A stretch of 64,000 nucleotides of DNA, from assembly GCA_963796315.1 (NCBI GenBank), contig CAWCLH010000020.1, positions 1,121,879 to 1,185,878 on the forward strand. The letters are read 5' to 3'. Below are positions 39,085-51,965 of the stretch, piece by piece (the stretch's first letter is position 1; each line of letters begins with the position of its first letter). The notes below the pieces were generated by a model. It saw only the letters and a program-made list of their open reading frames with translations. It did no database searches and was not told the DNA's origin. The stretch is from an uncultured Actinomycetota bacterium (GTDB taxonomy: Bacteria > Actinomycetota > Thermoleophilia > RBG-16-64-13). The position numbers and the translations under genes were made by a program.

Positions 39085-39831
39085 CTATCGCATCAGGTGT
39101 TGATGACGAAGACGCTCGATCCTTGAGGTCAGATCCATCTGGCGGTAGCGCACGATCAAGAGGTACGCGTAGACGAGCGTGATGGCGAACAGCGAGAACA
39201 TCAGCACGAGCGTCATCCGCGAATCCAGGTTGATGGCGTTCTCGGTGATGACGGTGGGGTGGATGGTCCGCCACCAACGCACCGACATGAAGACGATGGG
39301 TACGTCCACCCACCCCACGATGCCGAAGACCGCCGCCACCCGGGCCGTCTTGTGCCCGGGCTGCGACGCGGACCGCAGCATGAGGTAGGCCACGTAGATG
39401 AACCACAGCACCAGGGTGGTGGTCAGACGCGGGTCCCACGTCCAGTAGGCGCCCCAGATGGGCCGGGCCCACAGGGGACCGGTGATCAGGGTGACGGTGG
39501 TGAAGACGACGCCGATCTCGGCCGACGCGGCCGCGATCCGGTCGTAGCGCAGGTCCTTCTTGATCAGGTAGAGGATGCTCGCGATGAACACCACCGTGAA
39601 GGAGGGCCCCAGGGCGACCCAGGCGCTGGGGACGTGGAAGTAGAAGATGCGCTGCACGTCGCCCATCTGGGCCTCGGTCGGCGCGTAGAGCAGCGCCCCG
39701 TAGAGGGCGATGACGACGGACACCAGGGCCGCGACGCCCAGAGCGTCCAGCCAGAGTGAGCCGCCGGTGAGGCCGCGGGTCCCGGTCGAGGGCAGGCCGC
39801 GGTCGAGGGTCTGGTCGTGTGCCATGCTCAT
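39085..39831 (-). CDS. ccmC: Haem exporter protein CcmC
   Basis: 248 aa with the WWD motif WGAYWTWDPRLTTTLVLW. Confidence 0.9.
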   Translation of the reverse strand: MSMAHDQTLDRGLPSTGTRGLTGGSLWLDALGVAALVSVVIALYGALLYAPTEAQMGDVQRIFYFHVPSAWVALGPSFTVVFIASILYLIKKDLRYDRIAAASAEIGVVFTTVTLITGPLWARPIWGAYWTWDPRLTTTLVLWFIYVAYLMLRSASQPGHKTARVAAVFGIVGWVDVPIVFMSVRWWRTIHPTVITENAINLDSRMTLVLMFSLFAITLVYAYLLIVRYRQMDLTSRIERLRHQHLMR

Positions 39832-40505
39832 TCCTCGAGGACGAAGTCGAAGGTCATGATCGAGAGTGCCAGGAAGATCACGTCATAGACTACCAGCAGT
39901 AGGAGCCAGGAGGAGCCCTCGCCCAGCGAGCGCCCGTCCAGCACGTGCCCCGACGACTTGGCGGCCGCCAGGATCACCGGCACCATCACCGGGAACAGCA
40001 GGATGGACAAGATGACGTCACGGGCCTTGAGCCCCACCGACACTGCGGAGAACAGGGTGCCCACGCTGCTGAACCCGATGGTGGCCAGCACCAGGATCAA
40101 GCCCAGCGGGGCCACGGTGCGGGCCAGGTCGACGTTGTAGAGCACCGCGAAGAAGAAGAACACCACGACGCCCATCAGCAGCAGGAAGACGAAGTTGCCC
40201 AGGAACTTGCCCAGGTAGATCACGCTGCGGTCCACCGGGCAGAGCAGCAGCCCCTGCAGGCAGTCGTTCTCCTTCTCCGAGGCGAAGGAACGGTTGAGGC
40301 CCAGGATGCCGGCGAAGGTGAACGCGGCCCAGAGCACCCCCGGCTTGACCAGGTTCTCCTCCCGCAGGCCCGGCTCGATCCCGAAGTTGAAGATCAGGAT
40401 GACCAGGAAGCCGAAGAGAAGCATGGAGAAGACCATCTCGCGGGTGCGCAACTCCCCCACGATGTCCTTCCAGGCGATGGCCCACGCCCGGTTCAGGAAT
40501 CCCAT
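39828..40505 (-). CDS. ccmB: Haem exporter permease CcmB
   Basis: ATG 40505 gives MGFLNRAWAIAWKDIVGELRTREMV. Six TM helices. Overlaps ccmA and ccmC. Confidence 0.85.
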   Translation of the reverse strand: MGFLNRAWAIAWKDIVGELRTREMVFSMLLFGFLVILIFNFGIEPGLREENLVKPGVLWAAFTFAGILGLNRSFASEKENDCLQGLLLCPVDRSVIYLGKFLGNFVFLLLMGVVVFFFFAVLYNVDLARTVAPLGLILVLATIGFSSVGTLFSAVSVGLKARDVILSILLFPVMVPVILAAAKSSGHVLDGRSLGEGSSWLLLLVVYDVIFLALSIMTFDFVLEE

Positions 40506-41264
40506 CGGTAGTCCTTCCCCACGTACTCGAAGTACGTCTGCTCGAAGGCCGCCCGGTCGATCTGGCCGATAGGCCGACGGAACACGGTCTTCCCCAGCAC
40601 CTGAATGGACACCTCGTCGCACATCTCGAGCCCCTGCTCCAGGTTATGCGTGGTCAGGACGATGCTCCGTTCCCCCGTGTGCAGGGTCTCGAGGACGCTG
40701 CGCAGCATGCGGGAGGCATGCTGGTCCAGGCCGGTGTAGGGCTCGTCCAGGAACATGATGTCCGGTTCGTGCAGCAGGGCGCGCGCGATGGACAGGCGTT
40801 GCTGCATGCCCCGAGAGTACGTGGCCACCCGGTCCTCCATGCGGCCGTAGAGCCCGACCTCCTCCAGCAGCTTCGTCGCCCGGTCTTCCAGGTCGGCGAC
40901 GCCGTACATCGTGCCGTAGAAGGTCAGGTTCTCGAAGGCGGAGAGGCTCGGGATAGAGGTAGGTATTGTGCGAGATGACCCCGATGCGACGGCGGAGGAT
41001 GTCCGCTCCCTGCACCACGTCGGTCCCCGCCAGCAGCACCTGACCTTCGGTGGGCTTGATCTGGGTCGAGAGGACCTTGATCAGCGTGGTCTTGCCGGCA
41101 CCGTTCGGTCCGAAGATGGTGAGGAACTTACCCTGCTCCAGCTGAAGGTCCAGACCGCGAAGCGCCGCGAAATGGCCAAAGTACTTCCATAGGCCCCGGA
41201 CCTCGATGGCGAGGTCCGGGGTGGGTGGGCCGGGCTCCAGATTGTCAGGGGCAGCGACGGCCAA
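40493..41264 (-). CDS. ccmA: Haem exporter ATPase CcmA, frameshift near 40949-40952
   Basis: TTG 41264 lies 2 nt after the upstream stop. FGPNGAGKTTLIKVL. After ISHNTYLYP the alternative frame gives SLSAFENLTFYGTMYGVADLE...YSRGMQQRLSIARALL..MFLDEPYTGLD. Confidence 0.8.
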
Positions 41265-41266
41265 GG

Positions 41267-41879
41267 TCAGGCGGTCACCTCGGCGCCGCAGCCTCCGCAG
41301 AAGCGCGCCCCCGCCTTCAAGGGGGCGCCGCACTCGTCGCACGCGGCCCCCGCGTGCCCGTTGGGAGAGGTCTCCATCACGGCGACGGCCGACTGCTCCA
41401 GCAGGTGGTCGCCGCAGCCTGCGCAGAAGCGGGCCCCCGCCGGGTTGAGGTGGTCGCAGGCCAGGCAGACCAGCTGCCCGTCGTCCGCCGGGGCAGCTCG
41501 CCGCGGACGCTTCGGAGACGCGGCCGCTTGCTTCTGCGCGACAGCCGGCCGAGGCTGCCGCGCCGCGGTCTGCGTGGCCCGGGGCCGGCTCTTCGCCTTG
41601 GGCGCGGGCCGCTCGGCTTCGGCGATCGCTTCCAGGATCTCCACGGCGTTGGCCCGGTACTTGAGCGTCGAGCTCCCGGAAGTCGGACTCGGACAGTTTG
41701 CCCGTCCGGAAGTCGAACTCGAGCTCCTTGAGCGCCGAGTAGGTCGACTCCTTCCGCCGGTGCAGCTCCTCGACCTCCTCGGGAAGCTCCATCTCTTCTT
41801 CGTCGGTCCACTGGCGCAGCAGCGGATAGCCTACGAAGGCCACTGCCGCCAGCGCCATGAGGATCTTGATCAGCATCAC
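41267..41879 (-). CDS. CcmI-like N-terminal module fused to a double zinc ribbon, frameshift near 41668-41671
   Basis: MMLIKILMALAAVAFVGYPLL...YSALKELEFDFRTGKLSESDFREL. After the shift, TLKYRANAVEILEAI...LVCLACDHLNPAGARFCAGCG...ACDECGAPLKAGARFCGGCG. Confidence 0.6.
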
Positions 41880-41922: not shown

Positions 41923-42419
41923 TCAGTCGAAGTCCTTCAGCTCGTCCTCCATCTTGTGGACGAGCTCATCGCGCACCGGGGACTGCAGCTCCACCTGTCC
42001 CTCGGGGGTCGCGGCCACGAGCGCCGCGCGGCGCTTGGCCCAGCCGCCGATCAGAAAGTAGATGGCGATACCGCCGCCGATCAGGACGGCGAAGGGGATC
42101 AGCCAGGCGGCCAGGTTGAAGCCGCTCTTGGTGGGCGCGGCCAGGACACGGTCGCCGTATTTCGTGACGTACGAGTCGATCACCTGCTGAGGCGTCTCGC
42201 CCGCCGCCAGCTGGGCGTGGACGTCCTGCTTCGCAGGGATGCCCCACTCGCAGTTCTGGTGCGGGCACTCCTTGAGCACCGCGTTGCAGCCGCACAGGCA
42301 CATGATCTTCGAGGTCACCGACGAATCCGCAGGCGCCGCCTGTCGCCGGCGCGGTCCCCAGAAGGCCGGCGCCGAGCGCTAGGAGGAGCACCGCCGGGCC
42401 GAGCCACAGGCGCCGAAAA

Positions 42420-42430
<11 letters not shown>
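41923..42430 (-). CDS. ccmH: CcmH/NrfF-like protein, frameshift near 42333
   Basis: ATG 42430 overlaps the ccmF stop by 11 nt. The signal peptide [29 protein letters not shown] is in one frame. The mature part VTSKIMCLCGCNAVLKECPHQNC...AAWLIPFAVLIGGGIAIYFL is in another (ORF 41923..42318). Confidence 0.7.
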
Positions 42431-44423
<1,993 letters not shown>

Positions 44424-44526: not shown

Positions 44527-44973
44527 CTACTTGCCGGTCGACGTGCCCGTCGGCGCCTCGGACTTCGCCTTCGCCTCGTACTTGGACGGGCACTTGGCGA
44601 GCAGATCGACCGAGCTGAACTGCTTGCTCTGCAGGTAGTCACCGGTCACGACCACCTCGGGGGCGGGCTCGTCGGCACGCGGCTCCCGGAAGGTGTCGGG
44701 CACCGGGCCGGTGTGCGACACGAGCAGGACCTTATTCGGGGAAGCCTTGTCGTGGATCTGGAAGGTGATGGGCTGGCCCACGCCGCCCTTCTTGATACTG
44801 CCGACGACCAGGTCCCCAGAGACCTTGACGTTCTGGGACGGGCCCTTGGCCTGAAGCTCGGTGACGGTGTAGTAGTAGACCATGTTCCCCCGCACCGCGT
44901 AGAACGCGAGGGAGGCGATGGCGGCCACGATCACCAGGCCGCCGATCACGAACTTCAGCTTCTTGTTGCCCAT
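44527..44973 (-). CDS. ccmE: Haem chaperone CcmE, Cys-type (CxxxY) variant
   Basis: ATG 44973 follows GGAGGAAGG. TM anchor, and VDLLAKCPSKYEAK where canonical CcmE has HxxxY. Confidence 0.85.
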   Translation of the reverse strand: MGNKKLKFVIGGLVIVAAIASLAFYAVRGNMVYYYTVTELQAKGPSQNVKVSGDLVVGSIKKGGVGQPITFQIHDKASPNKVLLVSHTGPVPDTFREPRADEPAPEVVVTGDYLQSKQFSSVDLLAKCPSKYEAKAKSEAPTGTSTGK

Positions 44974-45025
44974 ATGCGCCTGTCCTTCCTCCATGGATCC
45001 TCCGACCCGCATCGACCGTACAGGA

Positions 45026-45502
45026 TCAGTACAGCAGTCGCTCGAGGCCCGTCCCACTCATCACCCGGTTGGTCACTTTCTCCGGGAACAGTTTTTCCGG
45101 GCATTTTACCAAAATCTGCGTAGCCTCGAAGACGCCGCCCTTGCCCGTGGAGCCCGTCACCACCACCTCTTGGAAGGGAGCGAGGCGTTCGGGGTAGGGC
45201 CCGGTGTAGACGACGTCCATGCGGCCGCCCTTCGATCCCTCGAGGACGAAGCGGACCTCCTGCGTCGACGGGTCCTGGTTCAGGCTGCTCTCGGCCACCC
45301 GGCCGCCGACCCGGACATTGGACAGCGTACCGGCCGCCTTGGCCTCGTCGACGGTCTGGTAGAAGTCTCCACCGACGGTCAGGAAGAGCACCAGCCAGAG
45401 CAGGGCCAGCACGATGACCACGATACCGACGATCAGCTTCCACCTGCGCCACCAGGGGGTCGAGACGGGGGGCTGCAGGTCCTGGGTCTCGGTCACCGTC
45501 AC
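45026..45502 (-). CDS. Second CcmE-like paralog (C-P-E-K-L, no Tyr at +4)
   Basis: GTG 45502 follows AGGAG. TM WKLIVGIVVIVLALLWLVLFL. FYQTVDEA, and TQILVKCPEKLFPEK at the haem-binding position. Confidence 0.7.
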   Translation of the reverse strand: MTVTETQDLQPPVSTPWWRRWKLIVGIVVIVLALLWLVLFLTVGGDFYQTVDEAKAAGTLSNVRVGGRVAESSLNQDPSTQEVRFVLEGSKGGRMDVVYTGPYPERLAPFQEVVVTGSTGKGGVFEATQILVKCPEKLFPEKVTNRVMSGTGLERLLY

Positions 45503-45507
45503 TCCTG

Positions 45508-46182
45508 TCAGTCGGCTTTCGCGGCTTGGAGACCGCTCTCGACCAGCTCTCGCAGGCCGGCATCTCCTAGGCCCGGCTCGATGGCGAGCCAGTACAGGTC
45601 CCTGCCGACGCGGAAGTAGTAGTGCTTCTGCCCCATGCCGTCCAAAGCCTGGACCTCGACGCCCTGCGCCGTCATCGTCTGCGGGTGTGTGAAGGGCGAC
45701 GTGCCGGCGGCGATCTTGGTCTTCATGCGCTCCATAAGGGCTTCGGCATCCTGGAGCCTCACCGATCGGCTGACCCACAGGGTCGCAGCCCCGCCGGTGC
45801 CGTAGGTGGCCAGCCAGGCCTCGTCCAGCCCGGCGCCCAACCCCTTGCCGTGGAGTTGCTCCACCTGGATGATGGCCTGCTCGCCGTCCAGGTACTCGCT
45901 CAAGGACAGTCCCGCGATGGTTCTGGGCACCGTCGCCGCCACCCCCGCCACCGGCGGCTGGATGGTACTCGGGCTGCCCGCCGGGTCGCCGAGCGTGGAG
46001 GTCGTCCCGGAGGCAGCGGTCTGCACAGCCGCCGGGGGAGCGTCCGCCGTCTGACCGCACCCCAACAGCACCAGGGCCAGGACCAGGAGGAGCACGGACG
46101 CCCCGACCCGCACCGGCGCCGCGAAGACCGAGGCGGCGATCCGCCCTCTCCACTGTCCGCCTCCTGCCCGCATGTGGGTCAC
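45508..46182 (-). CDS. Uncharacterised lipoprotein, first gene of the ccm operon
   Basis: 224 aa with lipobox LVLLGCGQ. No family recognised. 5 nt upstream of the second ccmE. Confidence 0.65.
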   Translation of the reverse strand: MTHMRAGGGQWRGRIAASVFAAPVRVGASVLLLVLALVLLGCGQTADAPPAAVQTAASGTTSTLGDPAGSPSTIQPPVAGVAATVPRTIAGLSLSEYLDGEQAIIQVEQLHGKGLGAGLDEAWLATYGTGGAATLWVSRSVRLQDAEALMERMKTKIAAGTSPFTHPQTMTAQGVEVQALDGMGQKHYYFRVGRDLYWLAIEPGLGDAGLRELVESGLQAAKAD

Positions 46183-46347: not shown

Positions 46348-47439
46348 CTACTCGCGCTCCTGTCCGCACTGGGGGCAGAACCGGTCGTTCTTCGTCAGCT
46401 TCGCCCCGCAATTCGTGCAGAAGCGCTGCGGCCCGGTGGCCGGCGCGGCGGCTTTGCCTTTCCTCGCCGTCGACGCGGCCTTGCTCGACCCCGTCCGGGA
46501 CCCTCCACCGGTGGCACGGCCTCCGCCGGCCACGGCCGGTGTCCGGCGATTGCTGATCATACGATAGGCGACGAAACCCGCGACACCCACGACCATGGCG
46601 ATGAGCAACCAGACCAGGTAGTTCTGGCTCGCCTGAGTCTGGGGGCTGTCGGTCGCGCTGGACTTGGTGGGGTTCGCGTCGGGCTTGTTGTAGGCGACCT
46701 GCACCCGGGCATGTTCGCCCGGTGTGACCTTGGCGGCGGTGGTCGTGAAGACCGTGAGGCCTTCCGCATCCGGTGAGGACTGCCCGAACGGAGGGGTCAG
46801 CACGAAGTCGGTGGCACGCGCAGGCTGCTGGACGGCCACCGTCAGCGTGTCGAGCGCGGCGGGCGCCTCGTAGTCGGCGACGAAGGAGCGGGCCCCCGTC
46901 GGGTCGAGGCCGCTCGGCTTGTAGTAGTACTCGATGTGCACCGGTTGATCTCGGGGCACCTGCGCCGACACCAGGTCCCACTCGGTCCCTGGAGTGACCT
47001 GCGGCGTCGGGCGGTTGTAGTCGAAGTTGCCCTGGGAGTCCAGGAGGGCGTAGCCGGTCAGCCGGGCATTGTGAGGGATGCGGAACTGGTAGTTCAGCGG
47101 GAGCTTCACGCCCTGTGGCAGCTGGTAGTTGATGATGACCAGCACTTCGCCGTCCGGAGTGTCGTACTCGGGCAGGAACTGGACGCTCGCATCGGGGAAG
47201 GTCAGGCCGGGATTGAGCTCCTTGAAGTCCGCGGACTTGGGCGAGATCAGCGAGCCGGCCGCCGCCACCGTGGTAGGGGTCGTACCGGTGGCCTCGGTGG
47301 TGCTGGATGGCGTCAGGGGCACGCCGAGCTGCGTGGTCGGCGTCGTCTGCGCCAAGGCCGCAGGCGCCATCATCAGCATCAGAAGGCCGACGAGGACTGC
47401 CAACAGTGGCCATCGCAACGAGGTCATGGCGCTTGTCAT
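46348..47439 (-). CDS. Secreted-domain / single-TM / cytoplasmic zinc-ribbon protein (uncharacterised)
   Basis: ATG 47439. Signal peptide LLAVLVGLLMLMMAPAALAQ. TM YLVWLLIAMVVGVAGFVAY. C-terminal FCTNCGAKLTKNDRFCPQCG. Confidence 0.65.
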   Translation of the reverse strand: MTSAMTSLRWPLLAVLVGLLMLMMAPAALAQTTPTTQLGVPLTPSSTTEATGTTPTTVAAAGSLISPKSADFKELNPGLTFPDASVQFLPEYDTPDGEVLVIINYQLPQGVKLPLNYQFRIPHNARLTGYALLDSQGNFDYNRPTPQVTPGTEWDLVSAQVPRDQPVHIEYYYKPSGLDPTGARSFVADYEAPAALDTLTVAVQQPARATDFVLTPPFGQSSPDAEGLTVFTTTAAKVTPGEHARVQVAYNKPDANPTKSSATDSPQTQASQNYLVWLLIAMVVGVAGFVAYRMISNRRTPAVAGGGRATGGGSRTGSSKAASTARKGKAAAPATGPQRFCTNCGAKLTKNDRFCPQCGQERE

Positions 47440-47455
47440 CGGGTCGTACGCTCCC

Positions 47456-48328
47456 TTATCGAGATGTCTTCTTGCCACGGCGAACAGGGGAGGCTGGGCT
47501 CTTGACCGCGCCTCCGCTCTTGGTGCTGCTTCGCTGCCTTCTTCTGTCGGTGGGGGCCTGCTTCCCCGGCCTCCGTGCCGGCGAGGAGGCAAGAGCCACG
47601 GGCGAGCGTTCCAGCCGCCAGATGAGGATGCCTCCGACGATGATCAATCCGATGCTGATCCATTGCTGCTGGGTCATCCCCAGCAGCACGGGGACGTTCG
47701 TCCGTACGAACTCCACGAGGAAGCGCTCGATCCCGGCCAGGACCAGGTAGACCGCGAAGAGCGAACCGCGACCCCGAAGCCGGGGCGCGAACACGTAGAT
47801 CAGCAGGAAGAAGATGCCGAGCGAGAGGATGACCTCGTACAGTTGCGTGGGGTGGACCACCACGGTGGTCGGCGGCTCCCCCTGGGGGAAGGACATCCCC
47901 CAGGGCAGGTTCGTCGGCTTGCCGTAGTCGTCGCCGTTGAGGAAGCAGCCGATCCGGCCCACGGCATAGCCCATCGCCAGAGCGGGCGCGACCACGTCGG
48001 CGGTCGTGGCTATGCGGAGTCTGGACAGCCGCGCCGCGATGATCACTCCCAGCGTGCCGCCGAAGAGCCCGCCGTACCACACCAGCCCGCTCCCGTTGAA
48101 GGCGGCGACGCGGAACTGATCCGGGTGGAGGATCAGGTAGTGGAGCTTCGCCCCGACCACCCCGCCCACGATGGCGCCGATCAACAGGTTGTAGACCAGT
48201 TCCGGGTTCTCGCCCAGCCGTCGCAGACGCCACCACGCGACGATGCCGGCCGCGACGAAGGCAAGGGCCATCATGACCCCGAATGAACGGACCGTCACCG
48301 GCCCAAAGTGGAAGAGCACCGGATGCAT
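47456..48328 (-). CDS. lgt: Prolipoprotein diacylglyceryl transferase
   Basis: 290 aa with GPVTVRSFGVMMALAF, WYGGLFGG and GRIGCFLNGDDYGKPT. Confidence 0.9.
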   Translation of the reverse strand: MHPVLFHFGPVTVRSFGVMMALAFVAAGIVAWWRLRRLGENPELVYNLLIGAIVGGVVGAKLHYLILHPDQFRVAAFNGSGLVWYGGLFGGTLGVIIAARLSRLRIATTADVVAPALAMGYAVGRIGCFLNGDDYGKPTNLPWGMSFPQGEPPTTVVVHPTQLYEVILSLGIFFLLIYVFAPRLRGRGSLFAVYLVLAGIERFLVEFVRTNVPVLLGMTQQQWISIGLIIVGGILIWRLERSPVALASSPARRPGKQAPTDRRRQRSSTKSGGAVKSPASPVRRGKKTSR

Positions 48329-51416: not shown

Positions 51417-51965
51417 TCAGGCATCGAACGAGTCGAGTTCCTCCTGCACGCGGCGACGGTACTCCGAGTCCGGCGCGTCGGGCCCGGACGAAGGAGTGGC
51501 AACCGGCACCGGCGTGGACGAGGCGGGGCCGCGCCAGCGCCTGATGGCCACCAGCACCACGCCTCCCGCCAGCGCTACGCCCACCGGGGGAAGCACGTAG
51601 GCCAGCCAGTTGAATCCGCTGGCCCGGGGCTTGGTCAGGATCTTCTGCCCGTACTGGGCGATGAAGACGTCCAGCACCTGCTGCTCCGTGTTGCCCTGAG
51701 CAAGCAGGCTACGGACCTGTGCCTTGGCCAGGACGACCTCCTCGCTGAGGTGAGCGTCGGACAGCGGCTGCGTCCAACAGCAGGGGCCCATCAGCTTGGT
51801 CTCGAGCCTCTTCGCTGTCGCTTCTTGCTCCGGCGACAGGGCTACGTCCACCGCCTCCTGCGCGGCGGCCGGAGCCGCCGCCACCAGGCTCGCGAACAGG
51901 ATCAAGCACAGGACGAAGATGCCCCGAGGTCTCACGGCGCCCAACGGGCGCCCTAGTGCGCTCAA
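51417..51965 (-). CDS. CcmH/NrfF-like protein with a vicinal Cys pair
   Basis: 182 aa with signal peptide and LMGPCCWTQPLSDAHLSEEV where CcmH has LRCxxCQxQSxxDS. C-terminal TM WLAYVLPPVGVALAGGVVLVAI. Confidence 0.65.
   Translation of the reverse strand: MSALGRPLGAVRPRGIFVLCLILFASLVAAAPAAAQEAVDVALSPEQEATAKRLETKLMGPCCWTQPLSDAHLSEEVVLAKAQVRSLLAQGNTEQQVLDVFIAQYGQKILTKPRASGFNWLAYVLPPVGVALAGGVVLVAIRRWRGPASSTPVPVATPSSGPDAPDSEYRRRVQEELDSFDA

Follow-up and report, generated by a model that had tools for sequence, protein, structure and literature searches.

A conserved long-tail CcmE paralogue encoded beside the ordinary Cys-type haem chaperone in an extended cytochrome c maturation operon of Actinomycetota

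We analyzed a window of 64,000 nucleotides from an uncultured Actinomycetota bacterium, in which two adjacent genes both encode proteins of the family of CcmE, the haem chaperone of System I of cytochrome c maturation. The upstream gene was found to belong to an old and conserved subfamily with a long C-terminal tail (long-tail, LT), which always stands beside an ordinary CcmE and never replaces it. Downstream of it lies the gene for the cell's ordinary haem chaperone, a Cys-type CcmE. For the LT protein we favor the reading, with a probability of about one half and based on its sequence, that it serves as a second haem-handling subunit working with the ordinary CcmE in cytochrome c maturation. 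The window (~69% GC) lies on contig C20 of the metagenome-assembled genome G000 (3.1 Mb, 78% complete), whose close relatives in the genome collection bear the labels Thermoleophilia, Gaiellales or Actinomycetota. A scan of this genome detected only two CcmE genes, the adjacent pair. All genes of interest in the window are carried by the minus strand, and the two co-directional open reading frames (ORFs) are located between the gene of a lipobox-anchored protein (45508-46182) and ccmF (42420-44423):

45026..45496, minus strand: long-tail CcmE paralogue (LT-CcmE), 156 amino acids; based on PF03100, an AlphaFold2 (AF2) model with Foldseek search, subfamily alignments and a tail census of 96 members
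44527..44973, minus strand: ordinary Cys-type CcmE (CPSKY), 148 amino acids, with a tail unconserved after the motif; based on PF03100, the tree and its P-D-T-F-R-E loop

The LT-CcmE is composed of an N-terminal transmembrane (TM) anchor, an oligonucleotide/oligosaccharide-binding (OB) barrel, Cys134-Pro135, a Leu at position +4 counted from the Cys, and a 25-residue tail with a terminal Tyr, ending with ...VKCPEKLFPEKVTNRVMSGTGLERLLY. In a preliminary description of this DNA the gene had been started at 45502. That codon is an in-frame GTG two codons before the likelier start, the GTG at 45496, which is found 5 nt after an AGGAG and agrees with the 156-amino-acid database entry P0003 and the MTDTQ start of P0004. 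The downstream ccmE starts with an ATG preceded by GGAGGA, and its product ends with ...LAKCPSKYEAKAKSEAPTGTSTGK.

Using the curated cut-off of 24.6 bits, both copies matched PF03100 over essentially the whole profile, the upstream copy with an E-value of 6.3e-19 (68.6 bits) and the downstream copy with 1.5e-18 (67.4 bits). The concern raised in the preliminary description, that the upstream copy might fail to align with CcmE beyond the short motif, was dispelled by this result, while its basic observation of two adjacent CcmE-fold genes with a TM anchor was confirmed. Compared with each other, the two proteins showed 30% identity over 142 residues (E-value 4e-16), with the motif KCPEKL in the upstream and KCPSKY in the downstream copy. 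The CXXXY motif is therefore present in the downstream copy (CPSKY) and missing in the upstream copy (CPEKL), where Leu138 takes the place of the Tyr at +4. This exchange and the different C-terminus had both been recognized correctly before. The alignment of both copies proposed there was made, and a structure prediction was obtained for the upstream copy. In the comparison with PDB sequences by phmmer, C134 was aligned to H130 and L138 to Y134 of Escherichia coli CcmE, with LVKCPEKLFPEKV of the upstream copy placed over LAKHDENYTPPEV of the E. coli protein. The AF2 model of LT-CcmE showed a predicted local distance difference test (pLDDT) score of 84, with a TM helix at 17-43 and the OB barrel at 49-132 (pLDDT >90), and the five best fold matches in the PDB found by Foldseek were all CcmE (8CE8 chain E, 1LM0, 1J6Q, 2KCT and 1SR3). 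The LT protein consequently has the full CcmE architecture of an N-in TM anchor, an extracytoplasmic OB barrel and a C-terminal tail, with Cys-Pro at the position of E. coli His130. The NCBIfam CcmE equivalogs (NF009727 and others, cut-off 126) were not reached by either protein, with best scores of 49.1 bits for the upstream and 60.9 bits for the downstream copy; both are too divergent from these proteobacterial models. In operon order, ccmABC and ccmF are encoded together with both ccmE copies.

In order to define the group to which the upstream copy belongs, databases of different size were searched. Among 5.8 billion proteins, 36 close homologues of LT-CcmE with 50-84% identity were identified. 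C134, P135 and the C-terminal Tyr (Y158) were invariant in all 36, and their tails follow the pattern C-P-[DES]-[KA]-[LFM]-[FL]-P-E-[KR]-V-T-N-x-V-L-x-G-x-G-L-E-R-L-L-Y. An HMMER scan of 1.84 billion cluster representatives found one cluster below 1e-30, with the next matches reaching only ~1e-15. These weaker matches include CcmEs with the same tail length and pattern, yet with a Tyr at +4 (for example CPENYLPEKAVGSLFKALRIEGQLYQ), and the Tyr-keeping tails align without gaps with the LT tail of the window. A profile search yielded about 96 LT clusters at 90% identity. Their tail measures 25 or 26 residues in 95 of the 96 and carries the signature C-P-x-x-[Y/L/F]-[LF]-P-E-[KR]-…-L-E-x-x-L-Y. 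Glu at +7 was invariant in the 95 full-length aligned members, Glu at +20 near-invariant, and an aromatic residue was found at +24 in all 96. The Cys-Pro pair is invariant in LT proteins (95/95), in their ordinary partners (15/15) and in single-copy sequences (16/16). At +4, Leu was found in 53, Tyr in 35, Phe in 6, and Met and Val in one LT member each (n=96).

The conserved tail of 25-26 residues is the defining trait of the LT subfamily. The change from Tyr to Leu, pointed out in the preliminary description, was ruled out as such a trait: 35 of the 96 LT members keep CPxxY, including L006 and P0238 inside the Thermoleophilia clade, and Phe at +4 also occurs in ordinary Cys-type CcmE, namely in 13 of the best 150 representatives (~9%). 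At L036, L042 and L046 (genomes G029, G149 and G131), the +4 position of the one Cys-type CcmE is occupied by Phe (CPSKF, CPSRF) or Met, so that the axial Tyr is not universal even among sole CcmEs. The GC content of the LT loci ranges from 42% to about 69%, with the tail residues invariant across them. The few named LT members are labelled Actinomycetota, Actinomycetia or Thermoleophilia, except for one Acidobacteria (RBG_16_64_8), and all are annotated as plain CcmE in the databases. A full-length LT match was found in only 5 of 401 sampled Actinomycetota genomes, distributed over three families.

For the phylogenetic tree the tail was removed, and only anchor and barrel were used. The LT proteins of the Thermoleophilia formed a clade with 100/100 support on a long stem, and the main clade of Tyr-keeping LT proteins received 100/98. 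A Tyr-keeping lineage (L006 and P0238, CP[SG]KYLPER...GLGRALY) was nested in the Thermoleophilia LT clade beside Phe-type members, from which it follows that the Tyr was lost inside that clade. Within the subfamily, Tyr(+4) gave way to Leu as a derived change confined to the Thermoleophilia branch, with Tyr kept by the other members. The downstream CcmE of the window fell into one group (99/88) with CcmE from those sister genera in the family which have only one copy, and is, judged by this placement, the orthologue of that copy. The earlier interpretation of the pair as tandem duplicates did not stand, and a recent local tandem duplication was ruled out by the separate clades together with an identity of only 30%. 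The deep branches of the tree were not resolved, and one clade of all LT proteins was not rejected (p-AU 0.28). A single origin of the LT proteins is argued from their shared tail.

Comparing pairs with unsaturated dS, dN/dS values of 0.12-0.25 were obtained for LT and 0.07-0.23 for the partner genes, and the mean pairwise identity within the same 8 genomes was 51% for LT and 58.5% for the partner. The LT gene is under purifying selection. Conservation extends through the tail in the LT proteins and ends with CPSKY in the partner. A pseudogene or gene in decay was ruled out by dN/dS and by the invariant Cys-Pro and tail residues. We consider it highly improbable that the LT protein acts as a decoy, buffer or regulator of the haem relay, or represents a decaying duplicate. 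Such a fate could be read from the loss of the Tyr at +4 in the Thermoleophilia branch and from an altered CcmC-docking loop (described below). However, many LT members keep this Tyr, the tail is invariant at loci of very different GC content, the position in the operon is conserved, and the dN/dS values effectively exclude decay; for a buffer, decoy or regulator nothing specific was found.

At all 21 sites with visible downstream sequence (the window, L003-L011, G100, L057, L058, L060-L064 and L066-L068; the contig of L059 ends too early to count), the LT gene was found directly upstream of a standard CPSKY ccmE. The ordinary ccmE starts 20-280 bp after the LT gene and is followed by ccmF at each of them. 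Strict adjacency would be expected for an obligate heterodimer, in which LT and ordinary CcmE pair via their barrels and TM helices and hold one haem between the barrels. Furthermore, conservation is unusually high where the LT TM helix ends (W36, L37, F40, G44 and G45 invariant), and CcmEs with two fused OB barrels (~228 amino acids; P0059, P0069, P0070 and others) are among the nearest relatives. Nevertheless, a Cys-Pro motif and an anchor of its own set LT apart from the second barrels of the fused proteins, and we regard the heterodimer as possible but doubtful. The same tentative weight is given to the view that the LT/CcmE pair corresponds, with two genes, to what other Actinomycetota encode as one fused two-barrel CcmE. 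Going further, Cys-type CcmE might generally be a two-barrel device, with LT and CcmE as an obligate heterodimer in which the LT tail and its C-terminal Tyr cap the haem iron, and with the fused CcmEs as an alternative solution; this generalization also appears rather unlikely to us.

The fused two-barrel CcmEs (P0059, P0069, P0070, P0090, P0116, P0125, P0159 and P0175) have in common with the LT pair that a Cys-type CcmE is joined by a second barrel of the CcmE type. In the fused proteins the second barrel comes after the Cys motif and lacks such a motif itself, whereas LT is a separate anchored protein with Cys-Pro and tail. The first barrel of the fused CcmEs carries CPSKY, CPEKQ or CPEKK. 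In P0181 two barrels were found with HDEKY on the second.

How the LT protein might take part in the haem relay was approached via residues characterized in E. coli. There, the CcmE loop P100-D101-x-F103-R104-E105 forms, together with R73, salt bridges to CcmC, with roles assigned to R73, D101 and E105 (PMC6204919). Partner and single copies keep this loop as P-D-T-F-K/R-D/E. LT copies without Tyr at +4 have P-E/D-R-L-G-P-Y instead, with Leu at the position of F103 in 61 of 61, Gln at the position of R73 in 56 of 61, and Pro, Ala or Ser at E105. The change of the loop from P-D-x-F-R-E to P-E-R-L-G-P-Y suggests that LT is probably loaded or released in a way unlike the ordinary copy. In Cys-type CcmE the Cys is needed for haem attachment (PMC9084895), and in E. 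coli the haem iron of released holo-CcmE is ligated by Tyr134 (PMC3884852). The residue at +24 was Tyr in all 61 LT proteins lacking Tyr at +4, and Tyr in 28 and Phe in 7 of those having it. In our preferred reading, LT-CcmE would bind haem via Cys134 like other Cys-type CcmEs, and the haem would be covered or ligated by the 25-residue tail (Glu +7, Glu +20, aromatic +24) and not by a Tyr at +4. LT would more likely be a partner of CcmE, or stand on the side of the CcmF/CcmH lyase, where it may hold or pass on haem.

Next, the haem load of the genomes was compared. In the LT genomes of family f1 the CXXCH-coding excess amounted to +150 to +236, and in the single-CcmE genomes of this family to -28 to +32 in 7 of 8, with +116 in G052. 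All seven LT genomes tested were multihaem-rich (132-236), and G000 encodes proteins with 33, 14 and 12 haems. A parallel and largely redundant second chaperone would offer an explanation: CcmC would load both CcmEs and both would feed CcmF, providing more haem flux for multihaem cytochromes. The retention of Cys-Pro, TM anchor and barrel in LT agrees with this, as does the large CXXCH-coding excess. Yet the identity between the two copies is just 30%, they fall into separate old clades, LT has a specialized conserved tail and an altered CcmC-docking loop, and an LT gene was never found alone, which is unexpected for an equivalent chaperone. Moreover, many non-LT genomes with one CcmE match or exceed this CXXCH excess. 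Overall, simple redundancy is unlikely. The assumption that LT is needed for a high multihaem load held within family f1 and failed across the phylum, where values of +133 to +305 were reached without LT. A distinctive class of haem motifs was not found in G000, and no CXXCK was present in its top multihaem proteins. From the preliminary suggestion of a specialized chaperone for a subset of cytochromes, the specialized chaperone stands as the best general reading; the restriction to a subset lost its support through the missing motif class and the haem-rich genomes without LT. The genes of the 33- and 14-haem proteins lie outside the window (C19:19977-22706 and C3:154239-156968); the 33-haem protein has a C-terminal TM helix and the 14-haem protein SLH-like repeats. 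Both proteins suggest that this Gram-positive, Thermoleophilia-like organism is capable of extracellular electron transfer.

We are aware that several observations weigh against a haem-handling LT subunit as outlined here. Haem binding by the LT protein is a prediction from sequence and model, and in this model the tail has low confidence (pLDDT ~56). The docking residues, known from E. coli alone, are carried over to a distant Gram-positive system, in a comparison that covered the CcmE side of the contact. The apparent compensation between +24 and +4 probably goes back to one or two evolutionary events and is a hint only. A strong amphipathic helix in the tail found no support in the copy of the window (hydrophobic moment 0.15). 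The barrel alone does not show monophyly of all LT proteins. Finally, many single-CcmE Actinomycetota without LT are equally haem-rich, with an excess of 133-305.

The operon around the two ccmE genes of the window contains the following further features:

46348..47592, minus strand: zinc-ribbon membrane protein, composed of an extracytoplasmic domain, a single TM helix and the zinc ribbon at the C-terminus (Zn_Ribbon_1, E 7.8e-8); start codon uncertain
45508..46182, minus strand: QLHGK protein, a membrane- or lipid-anchored accessory protein directly upstream of LT ccmE, with invariant H111 and H187
42420..44423, minus strand: ccmF, haem lyase core (PF01578 and PF16327)
41923..42318, minus strand: ccmH-like (PF03918, E 3.8e-17)
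41267..41879, minus strand: protein with a CcmI-N-like TM helix and a double zinc ribbon, in two frames in the assembly (ORF list, tblastn homologues)
within 39085..41200, minus strand: ccmA (PF00005), frameshifted near 40905-40930, upstream limit 41200 approximate
39828-40622, minus strand: ccmB (PF03379)
39085-39831, minus strand: ccmC (PF01578)

Full operons of the Tyr-keeping LT lineages, from marine-sediment and other metagenomes with 42-59% GC, showed the order FtrD-like gene, zinc-ribbon membrane protein, LT-ccmE, ccmE, ccmF, ccmH, zinc-ribbon protein, ccmA, ccmB, ccmC and a gene for 57-58 amino acids, which is the same operon order as in the window. The FtrD-like gene (PF10080) was observed upstream of the zinc-ribbon/LT ccmE module in L060, L061 and L063. 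The order ccmA-ccmB-ccmC is conserved, and ccmH and zinc-ribbon proteins were present in every LT operon seen in full. Homologues of the zinc-ribbon membrane protein were detected upstream of LT ccmE in L003-L006, L008-L011 and L056 by tblastn, and in L059-L063 a secreted-TM-zinc-ribbon protein was recognized at the same position by its architecture and weak Zn_Ribbon Pfam matches. Between ccmH and ccmA, homologues of the CcmI-like zinc-ribbon gene were found in L003-L006, L010, L011 and L056 (tblastn), and a zinc-ribbon gene also in L061 and L063.

The QLHGK protein is encoded between the zinc-ribbon membrane protein and LT-ccmE in the Thermoleophilia loci and in 3 of 4 short metagenomic contigs (L057-L059). 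Orthologues upstream of LT ccmE were found in L003-L005, L007-L011, L056 and L059, with C-terminal remnants in L057 and L058. It matched no Pfam or NCBIfam family. Its AF2 model is an alpha/beta sandwich with only weak PDB matches (TM1622, PknH ectodomain, DcrB, PsbP-like), and His111 (in QLHGK) and His187 (in GMGQxHY) are invariant. The QLHGK protein could be a haem- or metal-binding accessory and is listed here as a candidate.

Six genomes from other genera of the same family with a single CcmE have a minimal ccmE-F-A-B-C operon, which is devoid of ccmH, the QLHGK protein and the CcmI-like zinc-ribbon gene. CcmF is 70-78% identical across the LT-bearing Thermoleophilia loci and 38-50% identical to CcmF of the minimal operons. 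In the sample of family f1, CcmH was found in 4 of 4 LT genomes and in none of 8 single-CcmE genomes. A dependence of CcmH on the presence of the LT gene was ruled out, since other families of the class have CcmH with one CcmE. The occurrence of the LT gene only in operons with CcmH and zinc-ribbon/CcmI-like proteins might point to thiol-redox or apocytochrome handling, where Cys134 would form mixed disulfides with CcmH or with apocytochrome cysteines and the tail would act as a docking peptide; in the model, a single exposed Cys on the low-confidence tail would be suited for this. In opposition to such a function, the Cys-Pro context and the flanking [LV]-[VI]-[KR]-C-P match the haem-binding Cys-type CcmE, the families with CcmH and a single CcmE manage without LT, and the LT protein has no thioredoxin-like feature. 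We consider thiol-redox handling very unlikely.

Comparing the pair with known systems, the downstream gene (CPSKY) encodes a typical Cys-type (CXXXY) CcmE of variant System I, as described for Desulfovibrio desulfuricans, Desulfovibrio vulgaris (2KCT) and, among archaea, Methanosarcina acetivorans (PMC9084895), with the same TM-anchored OB fold and the replacement of His by Cys. The upstream copy shares Cys-Pro and the fold with these proteins, and 2KCT is among its top fold and sequence matches, but it differs in the Leu at +4, the conserved 25-residue tail and the coexistence with an ordinary CcmE. The operon of the window also has CcmH, in contrast to classic variant System I ('System I*', Allen 2006 / Goddard 2010, as cited in PMC9084895), which lacks it.

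With the CcmE of E. coli and Shewanella (HDENY; 1SR3, 1J6Q/1LM0, 8CE8 chain E), the upstream copy has fold, topology and attachment position in common. The beginning of its tail, C-P-E-K-L-F-P-E-K-V, aligns with E. coli H-D-E-N-Y-T-P-P-E-V, with Pro at +6 and Val at +9 in both. Differences are the Cys in place of His, the lack of Tyr at +4, and P-E-R-L-A-P in place of P-D-L-F-R-E. In LT the length of the tail is fixed and its residues are conserved, while in ordinary CcmEs, both partners and single copies, conservation of the tail stops at the motif. E. coli possesses a single CcmE. An analogy, and only that, exists to NrfE/F/G beside CcmF/H in E. coli, where duplicated Ccm parts are kept for a specialized maturation task; a CcmE paralogue in any such dedicated set was not described in the searchable literature. 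Literature searches on CcmE paralogues, including Thermoleophilia and Actinobacteria, also retrieved no description of the LT subfamily.

Descriptions of System I include a single haem chaperone, CcmE, and the Cys-type variant has been studied in Desulfovibrio and Methanosarcina as a single CcmE. The second type of CcmE found here is conserved, fixed in position, under selection and equipped with a signature tail of its own. It is part of an extended Gram-positive ccm operon, which also holds uncharacterized anchored and zinc-ribbon proteins. If LT binds haem, the relay in multihaem-rich Actinomycetota would have an extra step or a two-part carrier, and the branch without Tyr(+4) would be a natural experiment on the ligation of haem iron on CcmE. 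Should the two-barrel device be true, it would represent a new required component of the textbook System I relay. For annotation, the tail allows the separation of two proteins which are both labelled CcmE at present.

Some minor observations concern the assembly and the ccmH-like genes. The reading frame changes in ccmA (40905-40930), in the CcmI-like zinc-ribbon gene (~41650) and in the signal-peptide part of ccmH (~42320). The signal peptide of the ccmH-like gene appears in another frame (ORF 41966..42430), probably due to an assembly indel. The frame breaks in all three genes are probably homopolymer indel errors of the assembly and not signs of pseudogenes; comparable breaks were seen inside the long-tail ccmE of L004 and L009. 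Three CcmH (PF03918) matches were found in G000, at 41923-42318, at 51417-51965 and, as a weak third, on contig C4. The first two carry the cysteine motifs MCLCGC and GPCCWTQ instead of the classic LRCxxC.

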